Shown here piece after piece: positions 1,240 through 46,399 of a stretch of 64,000 nt of DNA. The DNA is from a virus. The notes beneath the pieces are model-generated. The model saw nothing but the letters and a program-made list of their open reading frames with translations. It did not search any database and was not told the DNA's origin. The stretch covers positions 32,001-96,000 of the IMG/VR virus record IMGVR_UViG_3300045988_168162; one strand, written 5' to 3'. The first letter of the stretch is position 1. Each line of letters starts with the position of its first letter. The translations under genes were made by a program, and so were the position numbers.

Positions 1240-1317
1240 TGGAACTGGAGGGCCTCGAACCCAAAATCATAATCCCAGTTATGAGCTGGACGCACTAACC
1301 ATTTGTGCTACAGTTCC
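1240..1317 (-). tRNA. tRNA-like gene with CAU anticodon (Met or Ile2), aberrant variable/T region
   Basis: Acceptor GGAACTG/CAGTTCC, D arm GCAC-AAATGGTTA-GTGC, anticodon arm TCCAG-CTCATAA-CTGGG, T loop TTCGAGG. Only 3 clean T-stem pairs, and about 10 nt sit between the anticodon and T arms. Confidence 0.45.
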
Positions 1318-1409
1318 TTATAAAATGGTTCCGTTTTTATCCTTAACGGTTTCCGTAACAGATAAGTAAGAATGAAACAAATATAGAAGGAGGGGGATAC
1401 CAGCCCCCA

Positions 1410-1485
1410 TGGTCGAATAGGCGAAACTCGAATTCGCGGCCTCTTGCTCCCAGGGCAAGCGTTCTACCAGCTGAACTACTACTCG
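1410..1485 (-). tRNA. tRNA-Pro (anticodon UGG), CCA encoded, unusual C at position 33
   Basis: Full 76-nt cloverleaf folded by hand: CGAGTAG TA GTTC AGCTGGTA GAAC G CTTGC CCTGGGA GCAAG AGGCC GCGAA TTCGAGT TTCGC CTATTCG A CCA. Confidence 0.8.
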
Positions 1486-1491
1486 ATAATA

Positions 1492-1580
1492 AGAGAGAAC
1501 CTACCCCTGGATGACTCGAACGTCCGTTTTCAGCCTGCGCTGCTGTCCTTGCCTATTAGACGAAGCGGCAAGCTCTCTCT
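1492..1580 (-). other. tRNA-like element or degenerate tRNA (canonical T arm, non-canonical remainder)
   Basis: 7-bp outer helix AGAGAGA/TCTCTCT, hairpin TTGCC..GGCAA, T-arm-like GGACG-TTCGAGT-CATCC. A 10-nt insert precedes the 3' strand, and there is no U33-type anticodon loop. Confidence 0.3.
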
Positions 1581-2190
1581 GAATTGGATTGAAAGTGTTT
1601 TCTTCTTGGCTCCCATTTCTATAGCCAGGATTCCGATAGTGGCGAACTATCCTAGGTGTTGGTTTATCTGCTAATGTTTACAGACTCTATAGCAGACCAC
1701 ATGCGAGTGGTGAAACCTTTGGCACCTGCCGGTTATCTGCAGGCACACGCTTTCAATCTTGGCGGGGCACTATCCCCAGCCTGTTGGTGGGACCTGGACC
1801 TTGCGGCCAGCCCCCGAGTTGTGCGAGACCTAGATCTGAGCGAGGCGAATCCTGCCTTTGCCGTTTGGCATCTCGCGGTAACGGAACCTGAATTCATGCG
1901 GATTTCACTGGGCGATATCTAATAAATAGACACCGAAACCGTTCATCATCCGAAGCAGCTGGATTCCGTTTTGCCCTGATTCCGGCTTTCGGCAGGTGAT
2001 CGGCCTGCTATAGAACCAGGGCAATGGTGCGGAATGAATCTTGACCAGACAGCCCGCGATTGGTATGTATAATGCAATGGGTGTGGCGCATGGTCTGGGT
2101 GACAAATTTGAACACTCGGATATGACCTGAGTGTGGCGCGTGTTGCAAGGGAATTCTCGTGCCTGGAGGCAGCTGCACATTTCGATTATA
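1581..2190 (-). ncRNA. Large ORF-free structured RNA candidate between tRNAs (copy A of the repeated 5' module; ROOL/GOLLD-like context)
   Basis: No credible ORF or SD. Flanked by tRNA genes on the same strand. Begins with the 42-nt module shared with 24105-24146 and 25863-25904. TATAAT lies about 52 nt upstream of the module. Confidence 0.4.
2093..2134 (-). repeat. Conserved RNA module, copy A (hairpin ACACTC-AGGTCATATCC-GAGTGT plus AATTTGTCACCCAGAC)
   Basis: 37/42 identical to copy C. The stem difference A3/T21 versus T3/A21 is compensatory. CCAGAC pairs with GTCTGG at 2045-2050. Confidence 0.8.
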
Positions 2191-2321
2191 CTGACAAAGT
2201 AGTGGCATAATCCACTGGACAACCTGGGCCGTGACTGTCATTAACCCTTGGCAGAAACCAGGTATTACTTTCGCGAGAATCCTGTGGCGCTGCTGTGCGC
2301 TGTTGGTAAGATTCATTCCGT

Positions 2322-2396
2322 TGGAGCGGCTGAGGGGCGTCGAACCCCCGTCCCCAGCTTGGAAGGCTGGTATACTGGCCGTTGTACGACAGCCGC
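2322..2396 (-). tRNA. tRNA-Gly (anticodon UCC), CCA encoded
   Basis: 75-nt cloverleaf: GCGGCTG TC GTAC AACGGCCA GTAT A CCAGC CTTCCAA GCTGG GGAC GGGGG TTCGACG CCCCT CAGCCGC T CCA. Confidence 0.85.
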
Positions 2397-2838: not shown

Positions 2839-3501
2839 TCAGTATTCGATGGTGATGGTTGTGGTGGCGTTGGAGACCGAGAGGGCAGCATCCAGATCGT
2901 TCTGGAAGGTGGTTACCATAGTCTCCAGCTCCTCGATGCGGGACGAGATCGTCTGCTTGTTCTGCTTCAGGCCATCGAAAACCTCGTAGGTATTGGCCTT
3001 GACGTAGGCTTCGCGGGCAGCTTCGACCTCTTTGGGATCGGCCGCCTTGGCCGCCTTATCGCCGCCGTACAGAGATGCGATATAGGAATCCGTGCGCTTA
3101 TCCAGCGTGGCGTTTTCATCCTCGACTTCCGATACGGCGTTGCTGTACTGGTAGCGCAGCTGGTTGAGCAGGTCTTTATACGGCTGGTAGCCAACCTGTT
3201 TCATAACGATAGCCTCGGCCACGGTCATGGTTTTATCGCCGACCTGGATCTTGGTGGTGGCGTTGGATACGGGGATGGCCATTTTAATGGCGTTGCGGCG
3301 ATGGATCAGCTCACTGATTTTATCGTAGGCGGAGACTGCCTTTGCGGTGAACTCTTCTGTGGGCTGACCGAGCAGCTTTTTGGCATTCATCTTGGCGCTC
3401 ATGCAGAAGTTGGCTTCACCAATGGCCTTGCCGATGCGCTTATCAATGGTTTTGAGCTCGACAAGGGCGCGGTGGATGGTCATGGTTTCGGTAGTGGACA
3501 T
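2839..3501 (-). CDS. Hypothetical protein (220 aa, helical/coiled-coil character)
   Basis: ORF track. SD GGAGG upstream of ATG 3501. The antisense ORF 2668-3525 is a low-complexity shadow. Confidence 0.7.
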   Translation of the reverse strand: MSTTETMTIHRALVELKTIDKRIGKAIGEANFCMSAKMNAKKLLGQPTEEFTAKAVSAYDKISELIHRRNAIKMAIPVSNATTKIQVGDKTMTVAEAIVMKQVGYQPYKDLLNQLRYQYSNAVSEVEDENATLDKRTDSYIASLYGGDKAAKAADPKEVEAAREAYVKANTYEVFDGLKQNKQTISSRIEELETMVTTFQNDLDAALSVSNATTTITIEY

Positions 3502-3574
3502 GGGAAGGACCTCCTTGAAGTTTGAAATTTTATGGTTTATGTTTATGTGCCGTTAATTCTTGACGGCTTAAATA

Positions 3575-3603
3575 TCCCGGCCTGTATGACCGGGGTATTT
3601 TTT
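3575..3603. terminator. Hairpin CCCGG-N9-CCGGG with T-run on the + side and A-run on the - side (bidirectional-looking)
   Basis: Lies immediately 3' of the minus gene that ends at 3602. GTATTTTTTA follows the stem on the + strand. Confidence 0.45.
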
Positions 3604-4693
3604 ATTGGTCGCTGATTTCACACCAACGATAATAATTGATAGTGCAAAGGCGTTTATTGCAAGTGGAAACGTAGGAATCTGCAATTGCTTTTGCCTCTTC
3701 AGGCGGAAGATTCTCTTTTTTTAAACGATAGAATATCCCGCTTAACATGATGGTTTCAGGGGTAAGTGTTTTGCTGCGGAACGGAGAATCCGACGGCAAT
3801 CTTTCCTGATGGGGTTTCATATTGCGGCTAAACGTATGCAGATATTCAAGACGTGTGCCATTTTTAGCTTTGTTCTCTGCACGATCCGACTTGATATTAC
3901 TTCTTGCTTTTACGACACGGCGAAGAATGTAGTCGGTTTCATCGTCGCAATATCTTAACACAGTGGGAGTATAAGTGCCATCGTTACGCGGAGATTTATA
4001 GAGACCGTTACAAGTATCTGACACAATGGCCAGTTTTATTGTGCGTAAGAAATCTGCATCCGTGATACTGATGCTATGACCATTATACTGGATATACGCG
4101 GGGCTGTTTTCTGTCTTATCGTGAAAATCCTTATGAGTCATATTCTCGATTTCATTACGTGAGAAACCGATCCACAGTAAGACAAGGCTGGCAGCCAGGT
4201 GAATATACGTATCATTGGGGAATACCGCGAAACAGAAATCTTTAAATTCCTGCTCAGAAAAGAACATGGAATGACGATAATCTTCATCTGACTGAAATAC
4301 CAACTTATTGCCGATTACTGGCTTTTTGGTAGCATTGCCATCGCGGAGCATTTTTGTTCTGAAATAGATATCTTGTAGTGGATGCTGATTGCAGACAGCG
4401 TTAGGCACATAACCGGAAGAAGAGAGCCAATCAAGATACTGACGCATGGAGTTAATATAATAAATCAAGGAACGGTATTTCTCTGAATTTGTTTCTTTTA
4501 CAATAGCAGAATAGGAAAAATATTGTTCCAGACATTGCTCGACCTGGGAAGGTGTGAGATCTTGAAATGGGCACTGGACCTGCTTTTCAAAAAGAGCAAT
4601 TACTTTATTGATATATTTTTTAGTTGCGATGGTGGTGGTCTTATTATATTGATCGATATAGGAAATATGCGCGGAATCGTTTTGAGTTGCCAT
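3602..4693 (-). CDS. Hypothetical protein (363 aa)
   Basis: ORF track. A segment LLWIGFSRNEIENMTHKDF faintly resembles tyrosine-recombinase box I, but no HxxR..Y was found. Confidence 0.6.
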   Translation of the reverse strand: MATQNDSAHISYIDQYNKTTTIATKKYINKVIALFEKQVQCPFQDLTPSQVEQCLEQYFSYSAIVKETNSEKYRSLIYYINSMRQYLDWLSSSGYVPNAVCNQHPLQDIYFRTKMLRDGNATKKPVIGNKLVFQSDEDYRHSMFFSEQEFKDFCFAVFPNDTYIHLAASLVLLWIGFSRNEIENMTHKDFHDKTENSPAYIQYNGHSISITDADFLRTIKLAIVSDTCNGLYKSPRNDGTYTPTVLRYCDDETDYILRRVVKARSNIKSDRAENKAKNGTRLEYLHTFSRNMKPHQERLPSDSPFRSKTLTPETIMLSGIFYRLKKENLPPEEAKAIADSYVSTCNKRLCTINYYRWCEISDQ

Positions 4694-4751
4694 AGTAGGC
4701 CCACCTTTCTATAGTATTATTTTACACTATGTAGGTGGGCTTTTCAAGCCC

Positions 4752-6325: not shown

Positions 6326-7792
6326 TTATAATAGGGGAGCATTGTGCTCCTGCATAAAAAGTTCTGCGTTTCGGCGCAGGAGACAGGGATCATTTTGGAA
6401 CTTGCCATCTACCACGCATTGCAGAAGATGGTTAAAGCATTGGCCGAACAAAGGGCCAGGACGATAGCCCATCTCCATAAGATCATGACCATTGATGTGC
6501 AGGTCCTGGATGGAGAGCTTGCGCCCCTCGAAAATTGCGATAGCGAGATACAGGTATGTGATTTCGGCCTTGCGCATAGCGTTCATAGTGCCAAACTTGG
6601 TATAATCGACACCGTGGGCGTAGAGATCAGCAAAACGGACAGCCATAAGCAGCTGGGCATTGACAGGACCAAGAGCGGCCAGCAGACGATTGGCACAGCG
6701 GACGGTGGGTTCAAATTGGCGGTCGTGGTTTTTGATGAGCAGGACGATCCGTTCCCGTTCCGCGTTAGAAAACTTGAGGCGGCGAAGAATGTCATCGGCA
6801 AGTTCGGCACTTTTTTCAGCATGGCCGTAAAAGTGGCCGGTGCCGCCATCATCGACCGTATAGCATACTGGTTTGGCAATATCATGCAAAAGCATCGTTA
6901 TGCAGAGCTCGAACCAGTGAGCGTGGATAGCAGCGGTAAACTCGGGGAGTTTTTGGGTGACGCTCTTCAGTTCCACGACAGACTTTAGAATATGATCTTG
7001 CACGGTGTAGATATGATAGGGACTGTGCTGCTGAAAATCACGACTGAGATAAAGTTCCGGGATAATTTCTTCCAGTACGTCGATATAATCGAAAAGAAGC
7101 AGACTGAAATCATCGTGCTCATAGCTGGAGGTGAAGATTTTGCGGAGTTCGGACTGTACACGTTCGGCGGAAAGACCGACAAGCATCTGAACATTCGCAT
7201 GAATTGCTGCTTCGGTTTGTACATCGATCGTCAAATCATAGCTGACGGCAAAGCGCAGGGCACGTAAGATACGCAGAGGGTCCTCCTGGAAGCGTTTGTT
7301 AGGGTCACCAACGCATTTGATGAAATTGCTGCACATATCCGCATAGCCTTTAAAGGGGTCGACGATCCCAATCGTGTAAGTGCCTTCTTGGGATGCATCA
7401 TCATTCGGTAAAATTCTGCCAGCGATGGCATTCATGGTGAAATCACGGCGGGCAAGATCTTCTGTGATATCATCGACAAACTCGACCGTATCAGGATGGC
7501 GGTGGTCTTTGTAAATGCCGTCTTTACGCATGGTTGTGACTTCGTACTGGCCGTCCGGCATGATAACTGTAACAGTGCCATGCTTGATGCCGGTATCAAT
7601 GGTAGGAGAGAAGAGAGATTTTACCGTGGTTGGGTCGGCCTGGGTGACAACATCATAATCGTGCGGTGTTTTATCGAATAGAATGTCCCGCATACAGCCA
7701 CCAACAAGGTAGGTTTTATAACCGGCACCTTCTAACTGGAGGACAAGGGTAACAAGATCATGCGGCAGGGGGATACCTTGTAGTACAGGCAT
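6326..7792 (-). CDS. cca: CCA-adding tRNA nucleotidyltransferase with C-terminal HD domain
   Basis: LVGGCMRDILF..PHDYDVVT, RKDGIYKDHRHPDTVEF, EDLARRDFTMNAIA (class II head domain). HD motif MLLHDIAKP. Confidence 0.9.
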   Translation of the reverse strand: MPVLQGIPLPHDLVTLVLQLEGAGYKTYLVGGCMRDILFDKTPHDYDVVTQADPTTVKSLFSPTIDTGIKHGTVTVIMPDGQYEVTTMRKDGIYKDHRHPDTVEFVDDITEDLARRDFTMNAIAGRILPNDDASQEGTYTIGIVDPFKGYADMCSNFIKCVGDPNKRFQEDPLRILRALRFAVSYDLTIDVQTEAAIHANVQMLVGLSAERVQSELRKIFTSSYEHDDFSLLLFDYIDVLEEIIPELYLSRDFQQHSPYHIYTVQDHILKSVVELKSVTQKLPEFTAAIHAHWFELCITMLLHDIAKPVCYTVDDGGTGHFYGHAEKSAELADDILRRLKFSNAERERIVLLIKNHDRQFEPTVRCANRLLAALGPVNAQLLMAVRFADLYAHGVDYTKFGTMNAMRKAEITYLYLAIAIFEGRKLSIQDLHINGHDLMEMGYRPGPLFGQCFNHLLQCVVDGKFQNDPCLLRRNAELFMQEHNAPLL

Positions 7793-8798
7793 GGTAGTTT
7801 ACCTCCATAACGAGTTCTTCTACCCGTTTATAATCCGAGGTTTTGGGGAGCATGGTGTTGGCTTTGTCATATTGCAGGCGCTTTTCATACTGATCGATGA
7901 GATCGAAAAACTCCTGGTAGTAAGTGCCGTCCGGCTTTTGGAACTTACCGGCGCGGATCTCCAAGAGGAAATCGCGGTCGTTTTCGCGGTAGGTGTTGAT
8001 CTCGCCTTTTTCAAGAATATCAAAGCACATGAGATAAAGCCAGACCAGGTGCATGGCGTGCTTATTCAGATGCAGATCATCCTTTTTGCTGTTGCGCTTT
8101 CCGAGCTTGGCGTACTGGCCGATGACCGTGCCGAGATCAGAATTCATTTCCTTAAAGCTGCGGAGTGGATAATGTTTAAGGTCGCAGTCAATGAAGATTT
8201 CTGTCTCCATGCCCTCTGTTACGCCTTTGTCAATATATAGGTGAACGGAATCACCAGGGATATCGGCGTGCTGCAAACGGAAGTTTTCAAAGACAGATTT
8301 GCAGGTGCCTAGAATATGGCGCTCTTTTTCATCCTGGTGATAGTGGTCATGTGCCAGGGCATTTTGCAGGCGGCGCAGCTGCTGATTGGCATAACCGCCA
8401 AAAGCGTGGACGGCCGTTTGAGAGAGAAATAGTTTTTTATTTTCAATAAGCATCTGGCCCGCCGGAGTGATGTAAAAATACTGGTCCGGTTTATTGCCGA
8501 GAAGTTCGATCGTGTTGGGATTACAAGAGAGCAGTAGACTGACGAGCTTATTGAAACCGAAGATCGTAGTGTCGGTGCCAGTATCAACACGCTGCTCAAA
8601 ATTAGAGAAACCGAGAATATCCTGCGGGGAGTTCATGGCACAGCCGCGGACATCCACATCCGAACCTTCGACATTGGTGCCATAGGCGTGACTGCCGCCG
8701 AGCGTTAGGAACATAATGTTTTCGCCCAGGTGCGGATCGGTGCGCAAGAAATCATAAGCAGGGGACAAGATCAGGTCATCGAATTCGTTTTGTGTCAT
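7758..8798 (-). CDS. Pol-beta-fold nucleotidyltransferase, RlaP-like (RNA-repair-associated family)
   Basis: N-terminal LTLGGSHAYGTNVEGSDVDVRGC matches the GS-x-YG..SD-x-D signature. Overlaps the cca start by 35 nt. Confidence 0.55.
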   Translation of the reverse strand: MTQNEFDDLILSPAYDFLRTDPHLGENIMFLTLGGSHAYGTNVEGSDVDVRGCAMNSPQDILGFSNFEQRVDTGTDTTIFGFNKLVSLLLSCNPNTIELLGNKPDQYFYITPAGQMLIENKKLFLSQTAVHAFGGYANQQLRRLQNALAHDHYHQDEKERHILGTCKSVFENFRLQHADIPGDSVHLYIDKGVTEGMETEIFIDCDLKHYPLRSFKEMNSDLGTVIGQYAKLGKRNSKKDDLHLNKHAMHLVWLYLMCFDILEKGEINTYRENDRDFLLEIRAGKFQKPDGTYYQEFFDLIDQYEKRLQYDKANTMLPKTSDYKRVEELVMEVNYHACTTRYPPAA

Positions 8799-23362: not shown

Positions 23363-23653
23363 TTAGTATTCGTCCGGGAAGAGGACCGTGGTTACGGAAC
23401 GGTCCCACTCGGTGATGATCCAGATGCGCCAATCGGGATGATCGGCGGGGTTATAGACGCTGAACAGGCGATCATTGCCAGAGGTAAGAGCTTCATTATT
23501 GAGCTGGGCATCCTCGGCACAGCAATCACCCCAGTCAGCGTTTTCGTGGCGGGTGATACACTGATACACATAGGTAAAGAAATTACGGTCATCATTCATC
23601 TTGGCGGCGATTTCATCCGTGACTACAAGAGAGCCAAGCTTGAATTTACTCAT
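23363..23653 (-). CDS. Hypothetical protein (96 aa; ..IWIITEWDRSVTTVLFPDEY)
   Basis: ORF track; ATGA-type overlap with the upstream small ORF. Confidence 0.6.
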   Translation of the reverse strand: MSKFKLGSLVVTDEIAAKMNDDRNFFTYVYQCITRHENADWGDCCAEDAQLNNEALTSGNDRLFSVYNPADHPDWRIWIITEWDRSVTTVLFPDEY

Positions 23654-23817
23654 ACAGAAGCACTTCCTTTCGGGTTGGCCGCGAAGAACTCATCCTCGGG
23701 GCAGAAGGGGCAATACCAGGAACCGCCGCGGTAGAAAGCGCCGGGTGTGTCCGGCAGACATTCGTAACAGACGGTGCCGTCTACAAAAGCAAGGGTGTAG
23801 GTGATGGATTTCATCAT
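23650..23817 (-). CDS. Small zinc-ribbon-like protein (55 aa; CYEC..CPFC)
   Basis: Not in the ORF track. MMKSITYTLAFVDGTVCYECLPDTPGAFYRGGSWYCPFCPEDEFFAANPKGSASV. GAAAGGAAA upstream; its stop overlaps the next ATG. Confidence 0.55.
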   Translation of the reverse strand: MMKSITYTLAFVDGTVCYECLPDTPGAFYRGGSWYCPFCPEDEFFAANPKGSASV

Positions 23818-23845
23818 TGAATATCATTTCCTTTCTGTGTGGTTT

Positions 23846-24190
23846 TGTGTGATGTAAGCTGATAAGGTGGCTGCCTGGACCAGGAGGTGGTCCCAACTCG
23901 TTATTCAGAAGCTGCTGCTCAATTTTAGGAAGTCCTGGTACGATTTTCTGGGTACGAAGCACTGTTGATTGGACGTGTAAGTGAGCTAATCGCTATGGAC
24001 TCTGACGCTTTTGCCAGTCGTTAGTTGGCAGTAAACTCTGAATCTTCGCTGAAGAATCACTAGGATCGCGATGGCCATCGGCGACTCGCCGATCGTGGTG
24101 GGTGGACTGGGTAACAAATTCATACTCTCGGATATGACCTGAGAGTTTTTGCCTTGAACTACAAAGCAAAAGTAAACCTTACATAACACA
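23846..24190 (-). ncRNA. Structured RNA, copy B (345 nt, closed by a 13-bp long-range helix)
   Basis: 5' arm TGTGTTATGTAAG (24178-24190) pairs with CTTACATCACACA (23846-23858), 12/13 bp. G then UUUAC follow the 5' arm, as in copy C. Carries the 42-nt module. Confidence 0.5.
24105..24146 (-). repeat. Conserved RNA module, copy B
   Basis: 40/42 identical to copy C. CCAGTC pairs with GACTGG at 24014-24019, so the A-to-T change is compensated. Confidence 0.8.
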
Positions 24191-24213
24191 GTTTATAGAA
24201 TGTAAAAACATTT

Positions 24214-24377
24214 CTGCGGCATTACCGAGCGCTCCAGATGGGGGTCTGAAGCGCCGGCAAGAAAGGAAGAAAAAATGAACAAGGGCTGCATGGAATCACC
24301 ACAAACCATGCGCCCGGTGGCCGGACGAACAACCGAAAGAAAGGAAGAAACGGCTGAAGCGCCCGGTAACACCGCAG
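24214..24377 (-). other. RT-proximal element: 20-bp long-range helix enclosing 124 nt with two UUCUUCCUUUCUU tracts
   Basis: CTGCGGTGTTACCGGGCGCT (24358-24377, minus sense) pairs with AGCGCTCGGTAATGCCGCAG (24214-24233). 17 Watson-Crick pairs plus 3 G.U pairs that work only in the minus-sense RNA. Confidence 0.45.
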
Positions 24378-24398
24378 AAACGGCGGGGGAAAACTGAA

Positions 24399-25589
24399 TC
24401 AAGCTGCTTTGGGCTTGAGATCGTCAGAGATACAGGTGAGAAGATCGGCACCATATCTGGCGTTGTACTTTTGGATGACACCGGCAATGGTGGCGGGTTC
24501 TACACTAAGGTAGTAGCTGATATTGCCGCGGAACTTTTGGAGATCCTCTTCGTCCCATTTTTTGCCGTTGCGGCGGTCTTTGAAATAGGTTTCGATGGTA
24601 GCTTTAAGGATTTTGTGGTTTCGATAACCAACGGTAATATCGCCATCCTTATTGAGCATCAGACCGAGCATCCAGTTACGACCGGCGCGGGTGCCGAAGT
24701 GGGTCTTTTCGGTATTCAAGGTAAAGGGAGCATCGAGTTCATGAAGCATGGCGATCAGTTCCCGCTCGACCTTGCGGTAGTTGAAGAAGACCCGGCAGGA
24801 GATATGAATATCATCGGCATAGCGGGTGTAACAGATGCGGTCTGTGATGGGCGTGCCATCTGGGTTGACTTTGCCGCTTTGGAACTGGTTGAGCAGGCGG
24901 GCAAACTTATGGTCGAAGGGAATCATCATGACATTGGTGATGAAAGGGGAGAACGGGGTGCCCTGTGGCAGGCCGTTATTGAGAAACGCCAGGCTTAAAG
25001 CGCGGCGAAGCTCCCTGCGGCCGGTGGGGTCTGCCAGGATCAGGTTGAAGGGATAGATCTCTTCCATCTGTTTGAAGACAAAGTGCGGTGTGGTGGATGG
25101 GAAAAAGCCGTGGAAATCATAATGGCAGAAGTACCAGCTGCGGAACCGCTGATGCTTGATAACGGCATCCTTGGTGGAGCGGCCATTGACATAGGCAAAA
25201 GCGCAGGTGTGGTGGTCGGCAAACATCCAGCCGGACATCATATCCTTGAGCTGAGCCAATGCCTTTTTGAGTTCCGGGTGCGGGGCATCAATGGGACGCA
25301 TCTTGCCGCCGGTCTTTTTCGGGATCTCGAAATGATCGTAGAGTTCCCATTTGTTGGGGTAATCGATCAGATCCTTATAGCAGGTATTGAACATCTTGAG
25401 CTGGCTGATCATGGCGTCCAGGCAAGTGATTTTCATAATGCGCTCAGGAACTTTGTCGCATACAACGGTGCGGGTGGAGCCGTGACCGCCGGAACGTAAG
25501 GAATCCAGCGGAATATCGACACCGAGCATAAGTTCCTCGAACGTGATTTGACGAACGGTTTCGGGGGTATTGTAAGTTATGTATACCAT
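24399..25589 (-). CDS. Reverse transcriptase, retron-like (396 aa)
   Basis: FEIPKKTGGKMRPIDAP, GRSTKDAVIKH (NAxxH-like), YDFHGFFPS, LPQGTPFSPFITN, YTRYADDIHIS, RNWMLGLMLN (VTG-like). ATG 25589 follows GAGGT; the ORF-track N-terminal extension covers the structured RNA. Confidence 0.85.
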   Translation of the reverse strand: MVYITYNTPETVRQITFEELMLGVDIPLDSLRSGGHGSTRTVVCDKVPERIMKITCLDAMISQLKMFNTCYKDLIDYPNKWELYDHFEIPKKTGGKMRPIDAPHPELKKALAQLKDMMSGWMFADHHTCAFAYVNGRSTKDAVIKHQRFRSWYFCHYDFHGFFPSTTPHFVFKQMEEIYPFNLILADPTGRRELRRALSLAFLNNGLPQGTPFSPFITNVMMIPFDHKFARLLNQFQSGKVNPDGTPITDRICYTRYADDIHISCRVFFNYRKVERELIAMLHELDAPFTLNTEKTHFGTRAGRNWMLGLMLNKDGDITVGYRNHKILKATIETYFKDRRNGKKWDEEDLQKFRGNISYYLSVEPATIAGVIQKYNARYGADLLTCISDDLKPKAA

Positions 25590-25607
25590 AGTGGTGTACC
25601 TCGATTG

Positions 25608-25944
25608 TGTTTGTGATCTTGAAGGAATGATGCTGATCTTGCGAAGCTGATCAGCTTCCTGGATTAGCTCCATACAGTGGTGGAATTGGCTTAAAACTCC
25701 AATCAGACAACTGACTGATGTCCAATCTGCGGCTGCCAAGTCTATTACATGACCAATCGACATCGATTGCCCGCTAAGTTAGCTTAAAATGCCCTTGATG
25801 TGAGCGGCGGAACTCGGCGATTCTTGTGGCACCCCCAGATGCGCCTGGCGCGTGCCTGCCCGGTCTGGGTAACAAATTCGTACTCTCGGATATGACCTGA
25901 GAGTCGTTGCGATTTACAAAATGCAACGGTAAACATCACAAACA
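25608..25944 (-). ncRNA. Structured RNA, copy C (337 nt) directly upstream of the RT; msr-msd-like candidate
   Basis: Perfect 10-bp closing helix TGTTTGTGAT (25935-25944) with ATCACAAACA (25608-25617). G then UUUAC follow the 5' arm. Contains the 42-nt module and many local hairpins. Confidence 0.55.
25863..25904 (-). repeat. Conserved RNA module, copy C (ACTCTC-AGGTCATATCC-GAGAGT ACGAATTTGTTACCCAGAC)
   Basis: CCCAGA pairs with TCTGGG at 25834-25839. Confidence 0.8.
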
Positions 25945-25993
25945 AATTTAAATTACAAAGTGTATTATACGGACGATATATTACATAGTGATA

Positions 25994-26677
25994 TTACATG
26001 GCCGTGATAGCTCCTTCCGTGTCGAGATTGAAAGGCGCAACCAGGATCAAATCCTTGATCTTGCCATCCGTGACAAACTTTTGGAAGTTGATAACGGTCA
26101 TGGTGGCAGCCATGCGAACCGTGGGCGCTACACCAAGGACCTCGCCACAGGCGGAACGGGGCACCTCAGCGGTCGCTTCCTCGTGGGTGAAGTTCATACT
26201 GTCGAGCAGTGCTTTCTTGGCCTGCGGGTCACGCCAGTCGGCTGCATAAAGCTGGGCATCAAACAATGCCGTGCGGACATCAAACATCGCCTTGATATTG
26301 GCGTTGTACTGATTGCGCTTGACAATGTCGCGCCGGATCGCAATATCATCCACGGCCAGGAACACATAGCCTGCCAGCGGCTCACCATGCCAGCCATCGG
26401 GTTTGACCTTGACGGTTTCATTACAGGTCAGATTGATATTACCAAGAATATCTCGCAAGGCATCGACCTTTTTCATGCCGACATGGTCATCGAAGAACAT
26501 CTGGTTGACGAGGTTTTTCTCCTCGACCTTGTCCATATCCCAAAGGGTGAACTTGGTGAGACCGTAGCGGGCCAGCAGCTCGGCGATGGTAGAACCGACA
26601 GAACCGCAGCCAATAATGTGAATGGGAGCGGTGATCTTGGCGGGGTCGAAAACCTCGCGGCTCTTATTTAAATTCAT
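25994..26677 (-). CDS. ThiF/MoeB/E1-like adenylyltransferase (227 aa), PRTRC-ThiF-like
   Basis: ATG 26677 follows AGGAGG and overlaps the JAB stop by 14 nt. Rossmann motif IHIIGCGSVGSTIAELLARYG; DMDKVEEKNLVNQ corresponds to the ThiF D-x-D-x-V..NL.RQ motif. Confidence 0.75.
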   Translation of the reverse strand: MNLNKSREVFDPAKITAPIHIIGCGSVGSTIAELLARYGLTKFTLWDMDKVEEKNLVNQMFFDDHVGMKKVDALRDILGNINLTCNETVKVKPDGWHGEPLAGYVFLAVDDIAIRRDIVKRNQYNANIKAMFDVRTALFDAQLYAADWRDPQAKKALLDSMNFTHEEATAEVPRSACGEVLGVAPTVRMAATMTVINFQKFVTDGKIKDLILVAPFNLDTEGAITAM

Positions 26678-27296
26678 CGGGGACCTCCTGACCGTAGGTG
26701 TACCAATCGTACTGCTTATAGTGGTTGTACTGGTTGAAATAGATGGGCGGCTGAACGACCGGCAGCGATTCGACCTTGACCATGGTTTTGACTTCATCCA
26801 GGAAGGACGGGTCAAAAGTATCGTAGGTAAGAAGAACTTCGTCCTGTTCACGAATCGTGCCATGATCGTAGATGTGGGCTGTGTAGTAGAGATCCTTGTT
26901 CCAGATCATGAAGATATAGAACTGGTTATCCGGGATGTGGCGTTCCTCCTGGCTTTGGATATCCGTACCGGAGGGGTGCGTGTCCATATAGACGTGGCTG
27001 TGACCGTGGTAGTGCAGGTCATCAAAGTTGGGATGCTCAAAGTACCAGCGGCCATATTCCTCCTGATCGACCACCACCGTAGCAGCGGTGACCGTTTGCG
27101 GATAGACCGTGATATCATAGACCTCCCAGCCATCCTGGATGGGGCGGGTAAGACCATGCCAGCCGATTTCGGTGTTATACTCGTTCAGCAGAGCGAGCTG
27201 TTTGTTCCAGGCATTGGCCGTGAAGTGGATATGAATGGGTTTCTTTGCGGGTGCCTTGACGGCGGGGGCCTTTTCATTCGGGCTCGTTTTGGACAT
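26664..27296 (-). CDS. JAB/MPN+ (JAMM) metallopeptidase-like protein
   Basis: HSHVYMDTHPSGTD fits HxH-x7-S-xx-D, with an upstream Glu in NTEIGWHG. Strong SD GAAAGGAGG. Confidence 0.7.
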   Translation of the reverse strand: MSKTSPNEKAPAVKAPAKKPIHIHFTANAWNKQLALLNEYNTEIGWHGLTRPIQDGWEVYDITVYPQTVTAATVVVDQEEYGRWYFEHPNFDDLHYHGHSHVYMDTHPSGTDIQSQEERHIPDNQFYIFMIWNKDLYYTAHIYDHGTIREQDEVLLTYDTFDPSFLDEVKTMVKVESLPVVQPPIYFNQYNHYKQYDWYTYGQEVPDEFK

Positions 27297-27299
27297 GGC

Positions 27300-28673
27300 T
27301 TACGCCTCCTTTCCGTTCATTTCATCACAGACGATCTGCATGGCTTCCTTGAATGTGATATCGGTGCCATCTTGCGTGCGGATGACCTTGCCACTGCCGA
27401 GAACCAGCTGCTGCGTAACACGACCCATGGCCCAAGTCTCAGACAGGGACACATTGGATGCGCTTTGCTGCGTGATAGCCAGGGCAGCGATATAATCATG
27501 GTTGCGCTCGGCATCTGCAAGATCGCCTGCATAGCCGCCCAGGCAGGTGGCAAAAGCGATATGCGGGTTATTGATATAGTCCGCAGCAATAGGCTCCATG
27601 GGATCATCGGCTTCCACAGCGTGGACAGCGGCATCTCTGTTGATGATGTAAGTGGCGGCCATCTTGATCGTGAACCGATGATCAACAAAGACAGCGCGGT
27701 AGAACGCGGTCATCTGATCGTTATCATACGGGTTATCGATTTCATGGGAGCCGCGGCCGATGCTGGAATAACCATCGAGAACGTCAGGGTAGTTCAGCAC
27801 ATAAGAATCGACCATGTCCTCATCATAACAGGAGAGGGTGGTGAGCACCGTGTACTGGATATAACCACTGCCGATGCCGATATGATCGATACGGAATCCG
27901 CCGCTGCGCAGGTAATCATAGATTTCCTGGCGAAGCTGATTCGTGTCGGTTTTGCGAAGGTAGGCAATCTTTGCGTTGTACTCTGCAATGAGACGAAGAT
28001 GATCGGAGATGCGGCGCTGGTAGCTCTTGATCTCTTGTTCGGCTTCCTCGATATTGCGGGAGGCGGAGCGGATCTGATCAGCCTGTGCGTTGACGGTGAT
28101 CTCCTGGGCGGCAGAACGATACTCGATCATATCGTAAGCGTACTTAGCGATAAAGGAAGCCGTGGCGTCCCAGAAATCTTTGCGCGATGCTGCGTTATCT
28201 TTTTGACTGATCTTGTAGACCAGCTGAAGCAGCGCGTATTCATCGGGCTGAAGCTTCTGTTCACCCTCGAACAGCCAGGGCAGGAGCATGGGGATGGCAC
28301 TAATCACACGAAGCCAGATCGCATGGCGTGGACGTACCGCCTGGTCAACATTCACGACGGCCCTGCGCTTATCGGGCAGGATAAAGACCTTGCTGTGCTC
28401 CGGGGCGATATAGTTTTCAAGCCGGGTCACACTGGTAAGGTTACTGGTAACAGGGAACGGAACCGTCCTGAGATAAAGGAACTCCGCATCCGTATCACCG
28501 TTATGGCCGTTTTCAAGATGAAGCGTTTCCGTTCTGGGGGCAACCACACACATCCAGACGGCCTGGAGGACGAGCAGATCATCACCGCTGACGGCGTAAT
28601 ACTGGTCACTGGTGAACCGCCCCTGCATGGAGCTTTCAAACGCTTTCGAGAGGATTCTTTCGTTGATTTCCAA
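27300..28673 (-). CDS. Large cassette protein of unknown function (457 aa, central coiled coil)
   Basis: TTG start follows AAAGGAGTG. Sits between the small Gly-terminated protein and JAB. Confidence 0.6.
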   Translation of the reverse strand: MEINERILSKAFESSMQGRFTSDQYYAVSGDDLLVLQAVWMCVVAPRTETLHLENGHNGDTDAEFLYLRTVPFPVTSNLTSVTRLENYIAPEHSKVFILPDKRRAVVNVDQAVRPRHAIWLRVISAIPMLLPWLFEGEQKLQPDEYALLQLVYKISQKDNAASRKDFWDATASFIAKYAYDMIEYRSAAQEITVNAQADQIRSASRNIEEAEQEIKSYQRRISDHLRLIAEYNAKIAYLRKTDTNQLRQEIYDYLRSGGFRIDHIGIGSGYIQYTVLTTLSCYDEDMVDSYVLNYPDVLDGYSSIGRGSHEIDNPYDNDQMTAFYRAVFVDHRFTIKMAATYIINRDAAVHAVEADDPMEPIAADYINNPHIAFATCLGGYAGDLADAERNHDYIAALAITQQSASNVSLSETWAMGRVTQQLVLGSGKVIRTQDGTDITFKEAMQIVCDEMNGKEA

Positions 28674-28705: not shown

Positions 28706-28978
28706 TTAGCCGCGGCAGGCGTTATCCTGCTTGGGGATGTTGAGCATGTAGAAGCTGGTGGCGGTGTTGATCTTCTCGAAATTATCGGCGAACCAGCGGA
28801 TGGGCTTGTCCAGGTTTTCCTCGCCCAGAGCGATGCCGTTGAAATTCGTCTGGCCGACATGGTAGTCAACGCCGAACTGATCCAGCAGCTGACGGGGCGT
28901 GGTGGTGTCCACAGAGATGGGGGCGGACTCGTGACGATCGAAAGAAGTGCCGACTTTAACCTTGATGATGCTTTCCAT
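28706..28978 (-). CDS. Small protein ending in Gly (90 aa, ..IPKQDNACRG); ubiquitin-like candidate by context only
   Basis: ATG 28978 follows AAAGGAG. Size, position in an E1/JAB operon and the terminal Gly are the only evidence. Confidence 0.5.
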   Translation of the reverse strand: MESIIKVKVGTSFDRHESAPISVDTTTPRQLLDQFGVDYHVGQTNFNGIALGEENLDKPIRWFADNFEKINTATSFYMLNIPKQDNACRG

Positions 28979-29062
28979 AAAACTTGTCTCCTTTGAAATA
29001 TACATTTATTTTGTGATTTTATACAGTGTTTGTATGCGGGCTTTGGATGTAAAAGAGGGGGA

Positions 29063-31958: not shown

Positions 31959-32068
31959 TTCGTGTTCACTCCTTGATTGCTTTATCATAAATTTATTGAT
32001 TGATAGGGTAAAAGAAAAGCACCCTTAGTCCAGGATGCTGGCGGTTGCGACACTGGTCTCGCGGAGCG

Positions 32069-45289: not shown

Positions 45290-46399
45290 TTGAAGGTATA
45301 TAAAGGCTACAAGTTCAAACTTGAGCCTACAGAGGAGCAGAAAATCAAAATCAACAAAACGCTCGGCTGCTGCCGCTTTGTGTATAACTCCATGTTGGAT
45401 AGGCGCATAAAAGTCTATACACGGCGCGGTGAGAGTATAAGCTATATTGATACGCAGAATCTACTTCCTAAGATGAAGCAGTATCTACCTTGGCTTGCCG
45501 AAGTGGACAGTCAAGCGCTCAAATATAGCTGTCGTCAATTAGACGACGCTTATAAAGGGTTCTTTAAAAGTAGAAGAGGCTTTCCAAACTTCAAACGTAA
45601 AAGGGGAGAGGAAAGCTACACAACTACCAGCGCAAAGAATATTAAGATTGATGATAAATACATTCAGCTCCCAACGCTCGGAAAAGTGCGCTATCGCAAG
45701 AGCCGCAACATCGAAGGAAAGATTTGCAAGGCAACAATTCGTCGTTCCGCAAGTGGTAAATACTATGTAAGCATTCTTTGCAAAGTAGAAGTAACACCAC
45801 TTCTTGTTAAAGATACCGTCATCGGTTTAGATGTAGGCATCAAATCTTTTGCTGTTGACAGCAATGGTAACGAGCACCCAAATCATAAATATCTTCAAAA
45901 AGCGGAAGCCAAACTAAAGCGTGAACAGAAAAAGCTGTCACGTAAAAAGAAAGGCTCTGCCAACTGGGAAAAGCAGCGCATCAAGGTAGCTCGCTGCTAT
46001 GAAAAAGTTACCAATAAACGAAAAGATACATTGCACAAGTTGTCATCTACACTAGTGAAAGAAAATCAAATCATTTGTGTAGAAGACCTTAACGTTAAGG
46101 GTATGGTTCGTAATCACAACCTCGCAAAGAGTATTTCCGATGCTGCTTGGGGAGAGTTCTTCCGCCAACTTGAATATAAGGCTAATTGGGCAGGAAGAGT
46201 TATCGTTAAAGTGCCGACCTATTATCCAAGCAGCCAGACTTGCTCTTGCTGTGGATATCAAAACAAAGAAGTCAAAAACCTCAATGTGCGGCATTGGGTC
46301 TGCCCTCAATGTGGTATATCGCACGACAGAGATAAAAATGCTGCAGAAAACATTCTGAAAAAAGGAATGGACATGCTGGCTATGTTAGCTGCCTCATAA
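45290..46399 (+). CDS. tnpB: TnpB RNA-guided nuclease
   Basis: [20 protein letters not shown], RuvC D ([13 protein letters not shown]), E ([11 protein letters not shown]), Zn finger CSCCG..CPQCG, D ([11 protein letters not shown]). TTG start follows AAAGGAGG. Confidence 0.9.

Follow-up and report, generated by a model that had tools for sequence, protein, structure and literature searches.

A retron-like reverse transcriptase accompanied by several hypervariable candidate template RNAs in phage genomes

Does a single phage-encoded reverse transcriptase (RT) serve several RNA templates? This question is raised by a 64,000-nucleotide stretch of viral DNA (IMG/VR record IMGVR_UViG_3300045988_168162, positions 32,001 to 96,000; hereafter the window, whose own coordinates are used below), in which a retron-like RT gene lies between two large non-coding RNAs (ncRNAs) with the end geometry of retron templates. 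An earlier note on this DNA, made from the letters alone, had drawn attention to the RT and to the structured RNAs beside it. With a probability of roughly 0.6, the locus can be read as a phage-encoded retron-type retroelement with a template array, in which one RT would produce several long branched multicopy single-stranded DNAs (msDNAs). The core of the locus, in the order of transcription, consists of the following features.

25608 to 25944, minus strand: upstream retron-like ncRNA, 337 nt (a1 at 25935-25944; candidate branching G at 25934; hairpin 1 at 25905-25928; hairpin 2 at 25882-25904; conserved tail at 25865-25881; hypervariable body at about 25620-25864; AG at 25618-25619; a2 at 25608-25617)
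24399 to 25589, minus strand: reverse transcriptase of the retron clade, 396 aa; its N-terminal extension of about 80 aa (MxYITY..RQITFEE) is specific to the family
24211 to 24380, minus strand: conserved structured RNA, named E3, between the RT stop and the downstream ncRNA
23846 to 24190, minus strand: downstream retron-like ncRNA, 345 nt (a1 at 24178-24190; G at 24177; hairpin 1 at 24147-24171; hairpin 2 at 24124-24146; tail at 24107-24123; hypervariable body at about 23861-24106; AG at 23859-23860; a2 at 23846-23858)

The RT possesses all of the motifs that the earlier note had listed for the reading frame at 24399-25589, namely EIPKKTGGKMRPI, GRSTKDAVIKH, YDFHGFFPS, LPQGTPFSP, YADD and MLGLMLN. 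It matches RVT_1 in Pfam (E = 4e-16) and more than 60 models in PADLOC, where retron RT models lead, with RT_II-A the best (2.5e-45) and RT_I-A also matched (1.4e-35). The top NCBIfam model is retron_St85_RT (172 bits; cutoff 235); the group II RT/maturase model of the same library reached 64 bits vs a cutoff of 300, and the scores speak against the UG/Abi/DRT clades, Drt2 giving 29 bits and Drt3a 16 bits vs 172 for retron St85. In addition, all 13 matches in PDB are retron RTs. With retron RTs as the closest matches in PADLOC, NCBIfam and PDB alike, the retron-type label given to the enzyme is upheld, and these profile and PDB matches place it in the retron clade and not in the groups of group II introns or diversity-generating retroelements (DGRs). 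Previous work showed that retron RTs carry NAxxH in region X, with the H most conserved, and VTG in region Y, with the G most conserved (PMC7736814). Invariant in 28 homologues of the RT (44-85% identity) are YADD, LPQGTP.SP (QGxxxSP), H146 and G309; aligned with a solved retron RT, H146 and G309 fall on the H of its NALAH and the G of its VTG, which are the H of region X and the G of the region Y triplet, respectively.

Retron ncRNAs are characterized by a1/a2 ends, a branching G, 'two opposing G residues' and short msr hairpins (PMC7736814). In the upstream ncRNA, TGTTTGTGAT (25935-25944) is perfectly complementary to ATCACAAACA (25608-25617) over 10 bp, G25934 comes right after the 5' arm, and AG stands before the 3' arm, which confirms the helix, the G and the coordinates reported earlier. 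The like architecture suggested for the downstream ncRNA is also found, as its closing helix (24178-24190 with 23846-23858) comprises 13 bp with one mismatch, a1 is followed by G24177 and then UUUAC, and a2 is preceded by AG. The minimum-free-energy fold of the upstream ncRNA contains the closing helix (z = -3.4 vs shuffles), and the downstream ncRNA folds better than shuffles as well (z = -2.7); the 10-bp helix taken alone is barely above shuffles in this search space. Common to both is a 5' module consisting of G-UUUAC, hairpin 1, hairpin 2 ACUCUCAGGUCAUAUCCGAGAGU and the tail GAAUUUGUUACCCAG, in which the 40-nt block of hairpin 2 and GAAUUUGUUACCCAG is 97.5% identical between the two, and hairpin 1 is unlike in sequence with its pairing kept. 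The two short hairpins after the G are msr-like and are candidates for recognition by the RT. At its other end, the a2 of the upstream ncRNA stops 19-30 nt before the RT start codon, beside the Shine-Dalgarno sequence. None of the RNAs matched an Rfam family, whether the whole window was searched at gathering score or 23700-26100 at E up to 10. The upstream RNA had been described as free of open reading frames (ORFs), which is not strictly so, because minus-strand ORFs of 50-90 aa overlap both ncRNAs; nevertheless, one-base indels and hypervariability among relatives argue against a coding role of the RNA bodies.

The same geometry is present in the relatives. A closing helix lies 5' of the RT in all clades with differing sequences (TGTTTGTGAT, GTTTGTGTT, GTTTCTGTAAT, AAATCGTGAT, CTAATAAA, TTGAGAAAT and others), and a G follows a1 in every clade, the scan itself having required that G. 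Compensatory a1/a2 changes occur in both ncRNAs of two members of the window clade (L176 and L177) and in the upstream RNA of other clades as well, while each downstream copy has its own unrelated a1/a2 pair of up to 18 bp. For an independent test of the helix, a covariance model (CM), R2, was built from the module alone, with the G as its first position and a1 excluded. In the window clade, hairpin 2 has its bulge in another register, so that R2 left the modules of the window itself undetected at E up to 0.01; these are covered by a further model, CM R1. The search with R2 recovered 91 modules in 62 sequences, 2-5 per locus, every one of them (91/91) on the RT strand. A helix was counted as anchored when it was contiguous, anchored on the base before the G, had a score of at least 8 and closed 150-460 nt downstream; such a helix was present in 68 of the 90 testable modules (76%), vs 1.5% with shifted anchors and 1.1% on the opposite strand. 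Among these 68, a2 is preceded by AG in 62 and by G in 67, the RNAs have a median length of 288 nt (range 192-388), and 30 distinct a1 8-mers with a matching a2 are represented.

Hairpin 2 gives a similar picture. In an alignment that was fitted to the structure, all nine of its pairs covary, with 86.6% of cells paired vs 65% in shuffles and 192 double-change cells vs 50 in shuffles, and none of 500 shuffles attained the observed value; controls in which the hairpin was slid gave 29-51% paired. Hairpin 1, judged by eye, is present in all clades with varying length. The covariance models and covariation analysis therefore bear out, over more than 90 RNAs, the a1/a2 helix and branching-G geometry that had been suggested for both flanking RNAs, with the closing helix and hairpin 2 covarying. 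Since the same layout recurs in relatives with different sequences, the comparison indicates that the closing-helix geometry is selected and goes beyond chance.

As for copy number, other clades have one upstream RNA and one to three tandem downstream RNAs, so that the arrangement of one RT with several cognate-looking putative templates holds as a conserved feature of more than 80 phage loci. The earlier note had counted two (possibly three) templates in the window; the two full RNAs with template geometry stand, and the third, an element recognized by a 20-bp helix, has no 5' module and is not taken as a template. In one distant clade, the upstream RNA does not directly abut the RT start, and a called ORF of 155 aa is located between the upstream ncRNA and the RT gene (L092 5531-5998 and L093 2118-2585).

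The bodies of the ncRNAs, which would be the copied part, behave differently from their ends. RNAalifold on 28 aligned upstream RNAs recovered only the closing helix and the two hairpins and no conserved structure in the bodies, so the description of these elements as structured RNAs applies to their ends and not to the long body. Across 42 bodies, the fold z-scores have a median of -1.0, with 26% below -2; the stable quarter consists mostly of downstream copies, a few of which reach -6 to -10 (lowest z -9.7) and could contain classical hairpins. The classical msd was described as a single or double long hairpin with a stem of 10-50 bp (PMC7736814), a feature which the bodies do not display.

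Moreover, the bodies are hypervariable. In four genomes whose flanks are 95-100% identical, identity drops to 25-59% at 2750-2950 and 4600-4700 of an alignment centred on the RT (RT start at 3001), two tracts that lie within the two bodies. Among eight genomes of the window clade, identity is 0.32-0.41 in the upstream body (25839-25640) and 0.20-0.50 in the downstream body (24089-23890), with flanks at 0.75-0.9, and among the 25 genomes of a clade referred to as the 62% clade, flanks are 94-99% and bodies 36-63% identical. The variable tract starts right after the conserved tail and stops at a conserved ..CAUCAG/..UUUAG before a2. Body alleles differ both by swaps of whole alleles or segments between backbones and by dense scattered substitutions, and one-base indels are common between close alleles. 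For instance, the downstream bodies are 78% identical in L025 and L034, whose flanks are 99.9% identical, and 57% in L017 and L031 (flanks 99.1%), the downstream body of L031 being the allele of L012/L016 at 96-97%. Within one phage, variation in one body is independent of that in the other (r = 0.14). The transition/transversion ratio (ts/tv) is about 1.0 in bodies vs 4.1 in flanking genes, and while RT third codon positions diverge by 8.7%, the mean divergence of the bodies is 36% (upstream) and 29% (downstream), which is more than relaxed constraint alone can account for.

No second copy of either body was found in the 64-kb window when the three RNAs were compared with it by blastn-short. 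Two other properties of the bodies were considered and set aside. U-poor templates were rejected, as a U content of 0.17-0.22 is only mildly low, and this does not apply in the window. Stop-free frames spanning the body number 37 vs 23.5 expected from dinucleotide shuffles of 42 bodies (about 1.6x, on both strands; 0 of 200 shuffles reach the observed value), e.g., L001 8121-8374 and L075 5123-5374; with this mild overall enrichment and no such frame in either window RNA, coding potential or DRT2-like open frames were rejected as a general feature. As a separate observation, 59% of the differences in the flanking coding regions of L005-L034 are C/T on the RT-sense strand vs 21% A/G, and transitions are strongly strand-asymmetric across the early region.

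Element E3, the third structured RNA of the locus, was first noticed as a 20-bp helix with three G.U pairs. The helix is real and its G.U pairs are possible only in the RT-sense RNA, but it comprises 27 bp (24354-24380 with 24211-24237) and four G.U pairs. Two UUUCUUCCUUUCUU tracts occur in the roughly 115 nt that the helix encloses. Compensatory changes in the helix were seen in L176 and in the 62% clade, and the region is better conserved (0.75-0.92) than the RT gene. In the 62% clade, E3 is located after, not before, the downstream RNA. The CMs detected no 5' module in E3, which accordingly does not look like a template candidate, and a regulatory or processing function can only be guessed. 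The polypyrimidine tracts of E3 (UUUCUUCCUUUCUU) are complementary to the AGAAAGGAAA Shine-Dalgarno region (23833-23842, minus strand) of a small ORF at 23650-23817, which lies just past the downstream ncRNA, and an anti-Shine-Dalgarno interaction with E3 may be possible.

Partial copies of the 5' module were also identified, one of them in the window.

2095 to 2135, minus strand: third, partial module with hairpin 2 and tail only (CM R1, 43.6 bits, E = 3e-7)

This copy is situated inside a tRNA cluster 23 kb downstream of the RT and is kept in relatives, and the sequence downstream of it is not hypervariable. Some 2.4 kb beyond it, a fourth copy is found in close relatives; in the window's phage, this copy probably lies just outside the left end of the window.

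Immediately upstream of the first ncRNA, four genes form a cassette.

28706 to 29005, minus strand: small protein, about 75-99 aa, with a conserved C-terminal K-x-D-N-A
27300 to 28673, minus strand: protein X, 457 aa (about 457-499 aa in the family), with a central coiled coil
26664 to 27296, minus strand: JAB/MPN+ (JAMM) metalloprotease-like protein Y, 210 aa
25994 to 26677, minus strand: ThiF/E1-like adenylyltransferase, 227 aa from an internal Met

The adenylyltransferase matches Pfam ThiF (2.8e-20) and the E1 domain of the PADLOC E1-E2 (Cap2-type) model (5e-17), with a weak NCBIfam match to PRTRC_ThiF (1.4e-4), and its gene directly precedes the first ncRNA in every locus examined. Protein Y is a candidate JAB protease-like enzyme from three lines: its invariant motif GHSHVxMxxxPSxxD, which corresponds to HxHx7Sx2D, a nearly full-length match to the PADLOC JAB model (2.6e-4), and the top Foldseek matches of a low-confidence AlphaFold model (pLDDT 49), all of which are MPN/JAMM proteins. 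Protein X matched no Pfam, PHROG or NCBIfam family, its AF2 model (pLDDT 60.6) gave no Foldseek match with E below 1, and a PDB profile search matched the coiled-coil segment only. The small protein, whose homologues precede X at the same position in L090, L092 and L094, was considered a candidate ubiquitin-like (Ubl) partner of the E1 and JAB proteins from its size, position and neighbours. The order X, Y, ThiF, ncRNA, RT is constant in all 82 IMG/VR loci as well as in L090-L094 and L175-L178, the order in L093 and L176 being partly cut off by the contig end, while genes downstream of the RNAs differ between clades. This constant adjacency is suggestive of a functional unit with the retroelement. 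In L090, a relative from termite gut, the genes for X and the JAB protein are separated by a PIN/MazE toxin-antitoxin pair (3345-4012), an insertion on the opposite strand.

Building on the observed RT family placement, RNA geometry with its covariation, multiplicity, strand bias, hypervariability and synteny, a mechanism can be proposed. In each ncRNA, the 5' module, made up of hairpin 1, hairpin 2 and a tail of the GAAUUUGUUACC type, would be the msr equivalent recognised by the RT. Each ncRNA would close its own a1/a2 helix, and synthesis would be primed from the 2'-OH of the invariant G that directly follows a1 on its 3' side. Subsequently, the RT would copy the body from the AG beside a2 back toward the module, giving a branched msDNA of about 150-250 nt, one species per template; the window phage would thus have two full msDNA species, from 25608-25944 and 23846-24190, to which the partial modules (2095-2135 and the off-window copy) may add RT-binding sites. 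Because the bodies share no common fold and turn over far faster than the rest of the genome, they or their cDNAs probably act as sequence-specific determinants under diversifying selection. Their turnover would proceed by allele exchange between the conserved ends and dense point substitution, perhaps also by RT-mediated self-mutagenesis, and the arena is likely phage-host or phage-phage conflict, in which the element would act with the adjacent Ubl-like/X/JAB/E1 cassette. Priming at the G, cDNA synthesis and its extent, and the link to the cassette are predictions; our confidence is moderate for cDNA synthesis and low for the biological role.

Several points weigh against this reading. The whole case is built from sequence evidence, in which cDNA, branch and transcript are predicted. 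The RT stays below the NCBIfam cutoff for the nearest retron family (172 vs 235), which puts it outside the retron_St85 subfamily, and in place of NAxxH and VTG the RT family has DAVIKH and MLG, without the N or the VT. The msd-like body has no long conserved hairpin, and most bodies fold no better than shuffles. A clean anchored helix is missing in 24% of the CM-detected modules, and two of the module copies in the window's phage are partial. Furthermore, a promoter and terminator scan found no sigma-70-like promoters or intrinsic terminators bracketing the RNAs, and the link with the cassette might be mere conserved gene order in one phage lineage.

Four other explanations were weighed. The locus could be a self-diversifying retroelement, DGR-like in function and built on retron machinery, in which an error-prone cDNA of the body anneals at the replication fork and overwrites its own template, the conserved 5' module and 3' end serving as homology arms and the RT-made hypervariability being either purpose or by-product. 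The hypervariable tract is indeed the segment predicted to be reverse-transcribed and is sharply bounded by conserved ends, its substitution spectrum (ts/tv about 1) is unlike that of the flanks (4.1), scattered point differences occur in genomes that are 99.9% identical elsewhere, and body divergences form a continuous distribution. However, the adenine-specific bias seen in DGRs is lacking, no separate variable-repeat target was found within the 64-kb window, and the body divergence of alignable pairs is only 1-2x that of third codon positions. Clear allele swaps between backbones (L017/L031, with L031 carrying the L012/L016 allele) are also present, and therefore recombination among pre-existing alleles explains much of the pattern. 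We regard this explanation as unlikely. The RNAs might instead not be templates at all, the modules being cis regulatory or processing signals (nut/put-like antitermination, RNase sites or translational operators), with closing helices that insulate freely drifting intergenic spacers and an RT that acts elsewhere or on nothing. Such signals would fit modules that recur along one transcription unit on one strand, partial modules without closing helix 23 kb away among tRNA genes, bodies without conserved structure, an a2 that ends 19-30 nt before the RT start codon by its Shine-Dalgarno sequence, and RNAs for which the scan found no promoters or terminators of their own. The geometry, in which a1 is invariably followed by G and a2 has a G before it, is nevertheless specifically that of retrons, and in every clade the full modules lie in a tight cluster at the retron-clade RT, even next to otherwise different neighbours. 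Neutral drift also cannot give 29-36% divergence at 8.7% third-position divergence, and the spacer length is held at about 190-390 nt, so that a purely regulatory role seems quite improbable.

The remaining two explanations concern the kind of RT. In a system of the DRT2 or defence-associated RT (DRT) type, the RT would copy the body, perhaps repeatedly, and the cDNA would be turned into double-stranded DNA expressed as a new ORF, or into a repetitive product. Whole-body stop-free frames are enriched (37 vs 23.5) and NCBIfam gives weak matches to Drt2 and Drt3a; against this, neither window RNA has a stop-free frame, one-base indels are common between close alleles, and the RT is far nearer to retrons (172 bits) than to Drt2 (29 bits). 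The a1/a2 and G architecture is also reportedly unlike that of DRT2 ncRNAs, and we consider this type very improbable here. A mis-called group II intron or DGR would be conceivable as such, since the label 'retron-type' on group II intron RTs is a known error (PMC12350094) and DGRs are common in gut phages (PMC8008677). A group II intron was rejected, as no Rfam group II family was found in the window at gathering score or in 23700-26100 at E up to 10 and the RT model reached 64 vs 300 bits, and so was a DGR, as the 64-kb window has no template repeat/variable repeat (TR/VR) pair, the substitutions are not A-specific and the RT matches retron models, including 13 of 13 PDB matches. The RT also carries QGxxxSP, which differs from the DGR-type RT motif, and a mis-call of either kind is hardly credible. 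Within the retron-type reading with a template array, a further proposal is that the bodies are programmable specificity cassettes, in which each phage would carry a personal set of long msDNAs as guides, decoys or identity tags in conflicts with hosts or other phages, read out through Ubl/JAB/E1, the cassettes being renewed by RT self-mutagenesis and by exchange of the sequence between their conserved ends. We hold this to be a doubtful but serious possibility.

Compared with known systems, the element is retron-like in enzyme and RNA geometry and different in carrier, multiplicity, template architecture and evolution, and accessory genes. Retrons have been known as anti-phage systems of bacteria, each with one RT and one ncRNA. 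The nearest are the St85/type II-A and type I-A RT clades (Mestre et al. 2020, PMC7736814), with which the phage element shares a retron-clade RT, an ncRNA immediately 5' of it that has an a1/a2 helix, two short msr-like hairpins and opposing G residues directly after a1 and before a2, and putative accessory genes in a fixed cassette. Unlike bacterial retrons, it is carried by large phages (75-150 kb) and not by bacterial defence islands, and it has 2-5 ncRNAs per RT on both sides of the gene. These RNAs measure 190-390 nt, have a body without conserved long msd hairpin and are hypervariable in the body between near-identical genomes. The RT differs by its extra N-terminal extension of about 80 aa and by the absence of the N of NAxxH and the VT of VTG, and the putative accessory set differs in consisting of a candidate Ubl-like protein, protein X, a putative JAB protease and an E1 enzyme. 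To our knowledge, none of the 13 described retron types has a Ubl/X/JAB/E1 accessory set, and 'ThiF' does not occur in the text of the type survey (PMC7736814).

Engineered retron arrays also combine one retron RT with several tandem ncRNA templates. These multitrons and recombitrons are synthetic constructs, whereas the phage array is natural, conserved and fast-evolving. Similar to gut-phage DGRs, the locus places a phage-borne RT beside a sharply bounded hypervariable tract; however, the RT belongs to another clade, no TR/VR pair, Avd gene or adenine-specific pattern was seen, and the variable tract is the putative non-coding template itself and not a protein-coding target. The cassette, with its order Ubl-X-JAB-E1 in the window, resembles CBASS type II Cap2/Cap3 and PRTRC-type cassettes in combining an E1-like adenylyltransferase, a JAB protease and a small candidate Ubl, and departs from them in having no E2 domain and no CD-NTase or ParB partner. 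In full-text literature, most subscription journals being outside reach, no phage retrons with multiple ncRNAs, no hypervariable msd regions and no RT linked to an E1/JAB cassette were found, in line with the earlier statement that a layout of one RT with several templates in a phage was not known to have been described. The hypervariability of the bodies and the linked Ubl/JAB/E1 cassette are both new beyond that note.

The RT locus belongs to a minus-strand gene block of about 36 kb, which also holds an anti-repressor/Bro-N protein, tRNA genes and nucleotidyltransferases, and the plus-strand block opposite it contains terminase, portal and further virion genes. Because this minus-strand block faces plus-strand virion genes, the window is phage DNA. 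Its nearest relatives are IMG/VR contigs of 89-138 kb. The RT family comprises 3,905 proteins at E up to 1e-3, with at least 534 loci in IMG/VR on contigs mostly of 75-150 kb, and in a species-representative genome collection it was found only on contigs of metagenome-assembled genomes, most of which were binned with Clostridia. Beyond the family, a genome scan showed a sharp fall to ordinary retron RTs at 25-30% identity that do not possess the N-terminal extension. The locus had no blastn match among 50,697 phage genomes, in which the sole protein-level relative is MT835544 (44% identity). By these searches, the RT family is a discrete and very abundant group inside large gut phages.

The tRNA cluster at 1240-2396 (minus strand) encodes Met-CAT, Pro-TGG and Gly-TCC, and a tRNA nucleotidyltransferase and a second nucleotidyltransferase are found near it at 6326-8798 (minus strand), so the phage has its own tRNA maturation kit. 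The Rfam DUF3800-XI RNA motif was detected between tRNA-Gly and tRNA-Pro (1765-1814, minus strand; 44.3 bits with a gathering score of 37.8), about 300 nt 3' of the partial retron-like module, and it differs slightly across relatives. One relative, IMGVR_UViG_3300023506_000358 (L088+L083), has an insertion of about 0.9 kb directly after tRNA-Pro, apparently with an ORF (aligned to about 1400-1300 of the window); the 3' part of its tRNA-Pro and the following tRNA are unlike those in the window, and the arrangement resembles a mobile insertion in the tRNA cluster. The plus-strand block also contains a transposase gene (45290-46399, plus strand; phrog_506, E = 1e-135), which lies several kb upstream of those for terminase and portal.

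In the phages that carry this RT family, no part of the genome evolves faster than the putative templates. Provided that cDNA is produced, the locus would become the first multi-template retron from nature and a new example of hypervariation confined to a non-coding region, and it might be the first to tie reverse transcription to a ubiquitin-like conjugation cassette. The RT would then naturally serve several long (150-250 nt), sequence-unconstrained templates, a property wanted in retron editing technology. Should the bodies in fact be programmable cassettes, the phages would possess a multiplexed retron of natural origin, with targeted hypervariation and a mechanism unlike that of DGRs or CRISPR.

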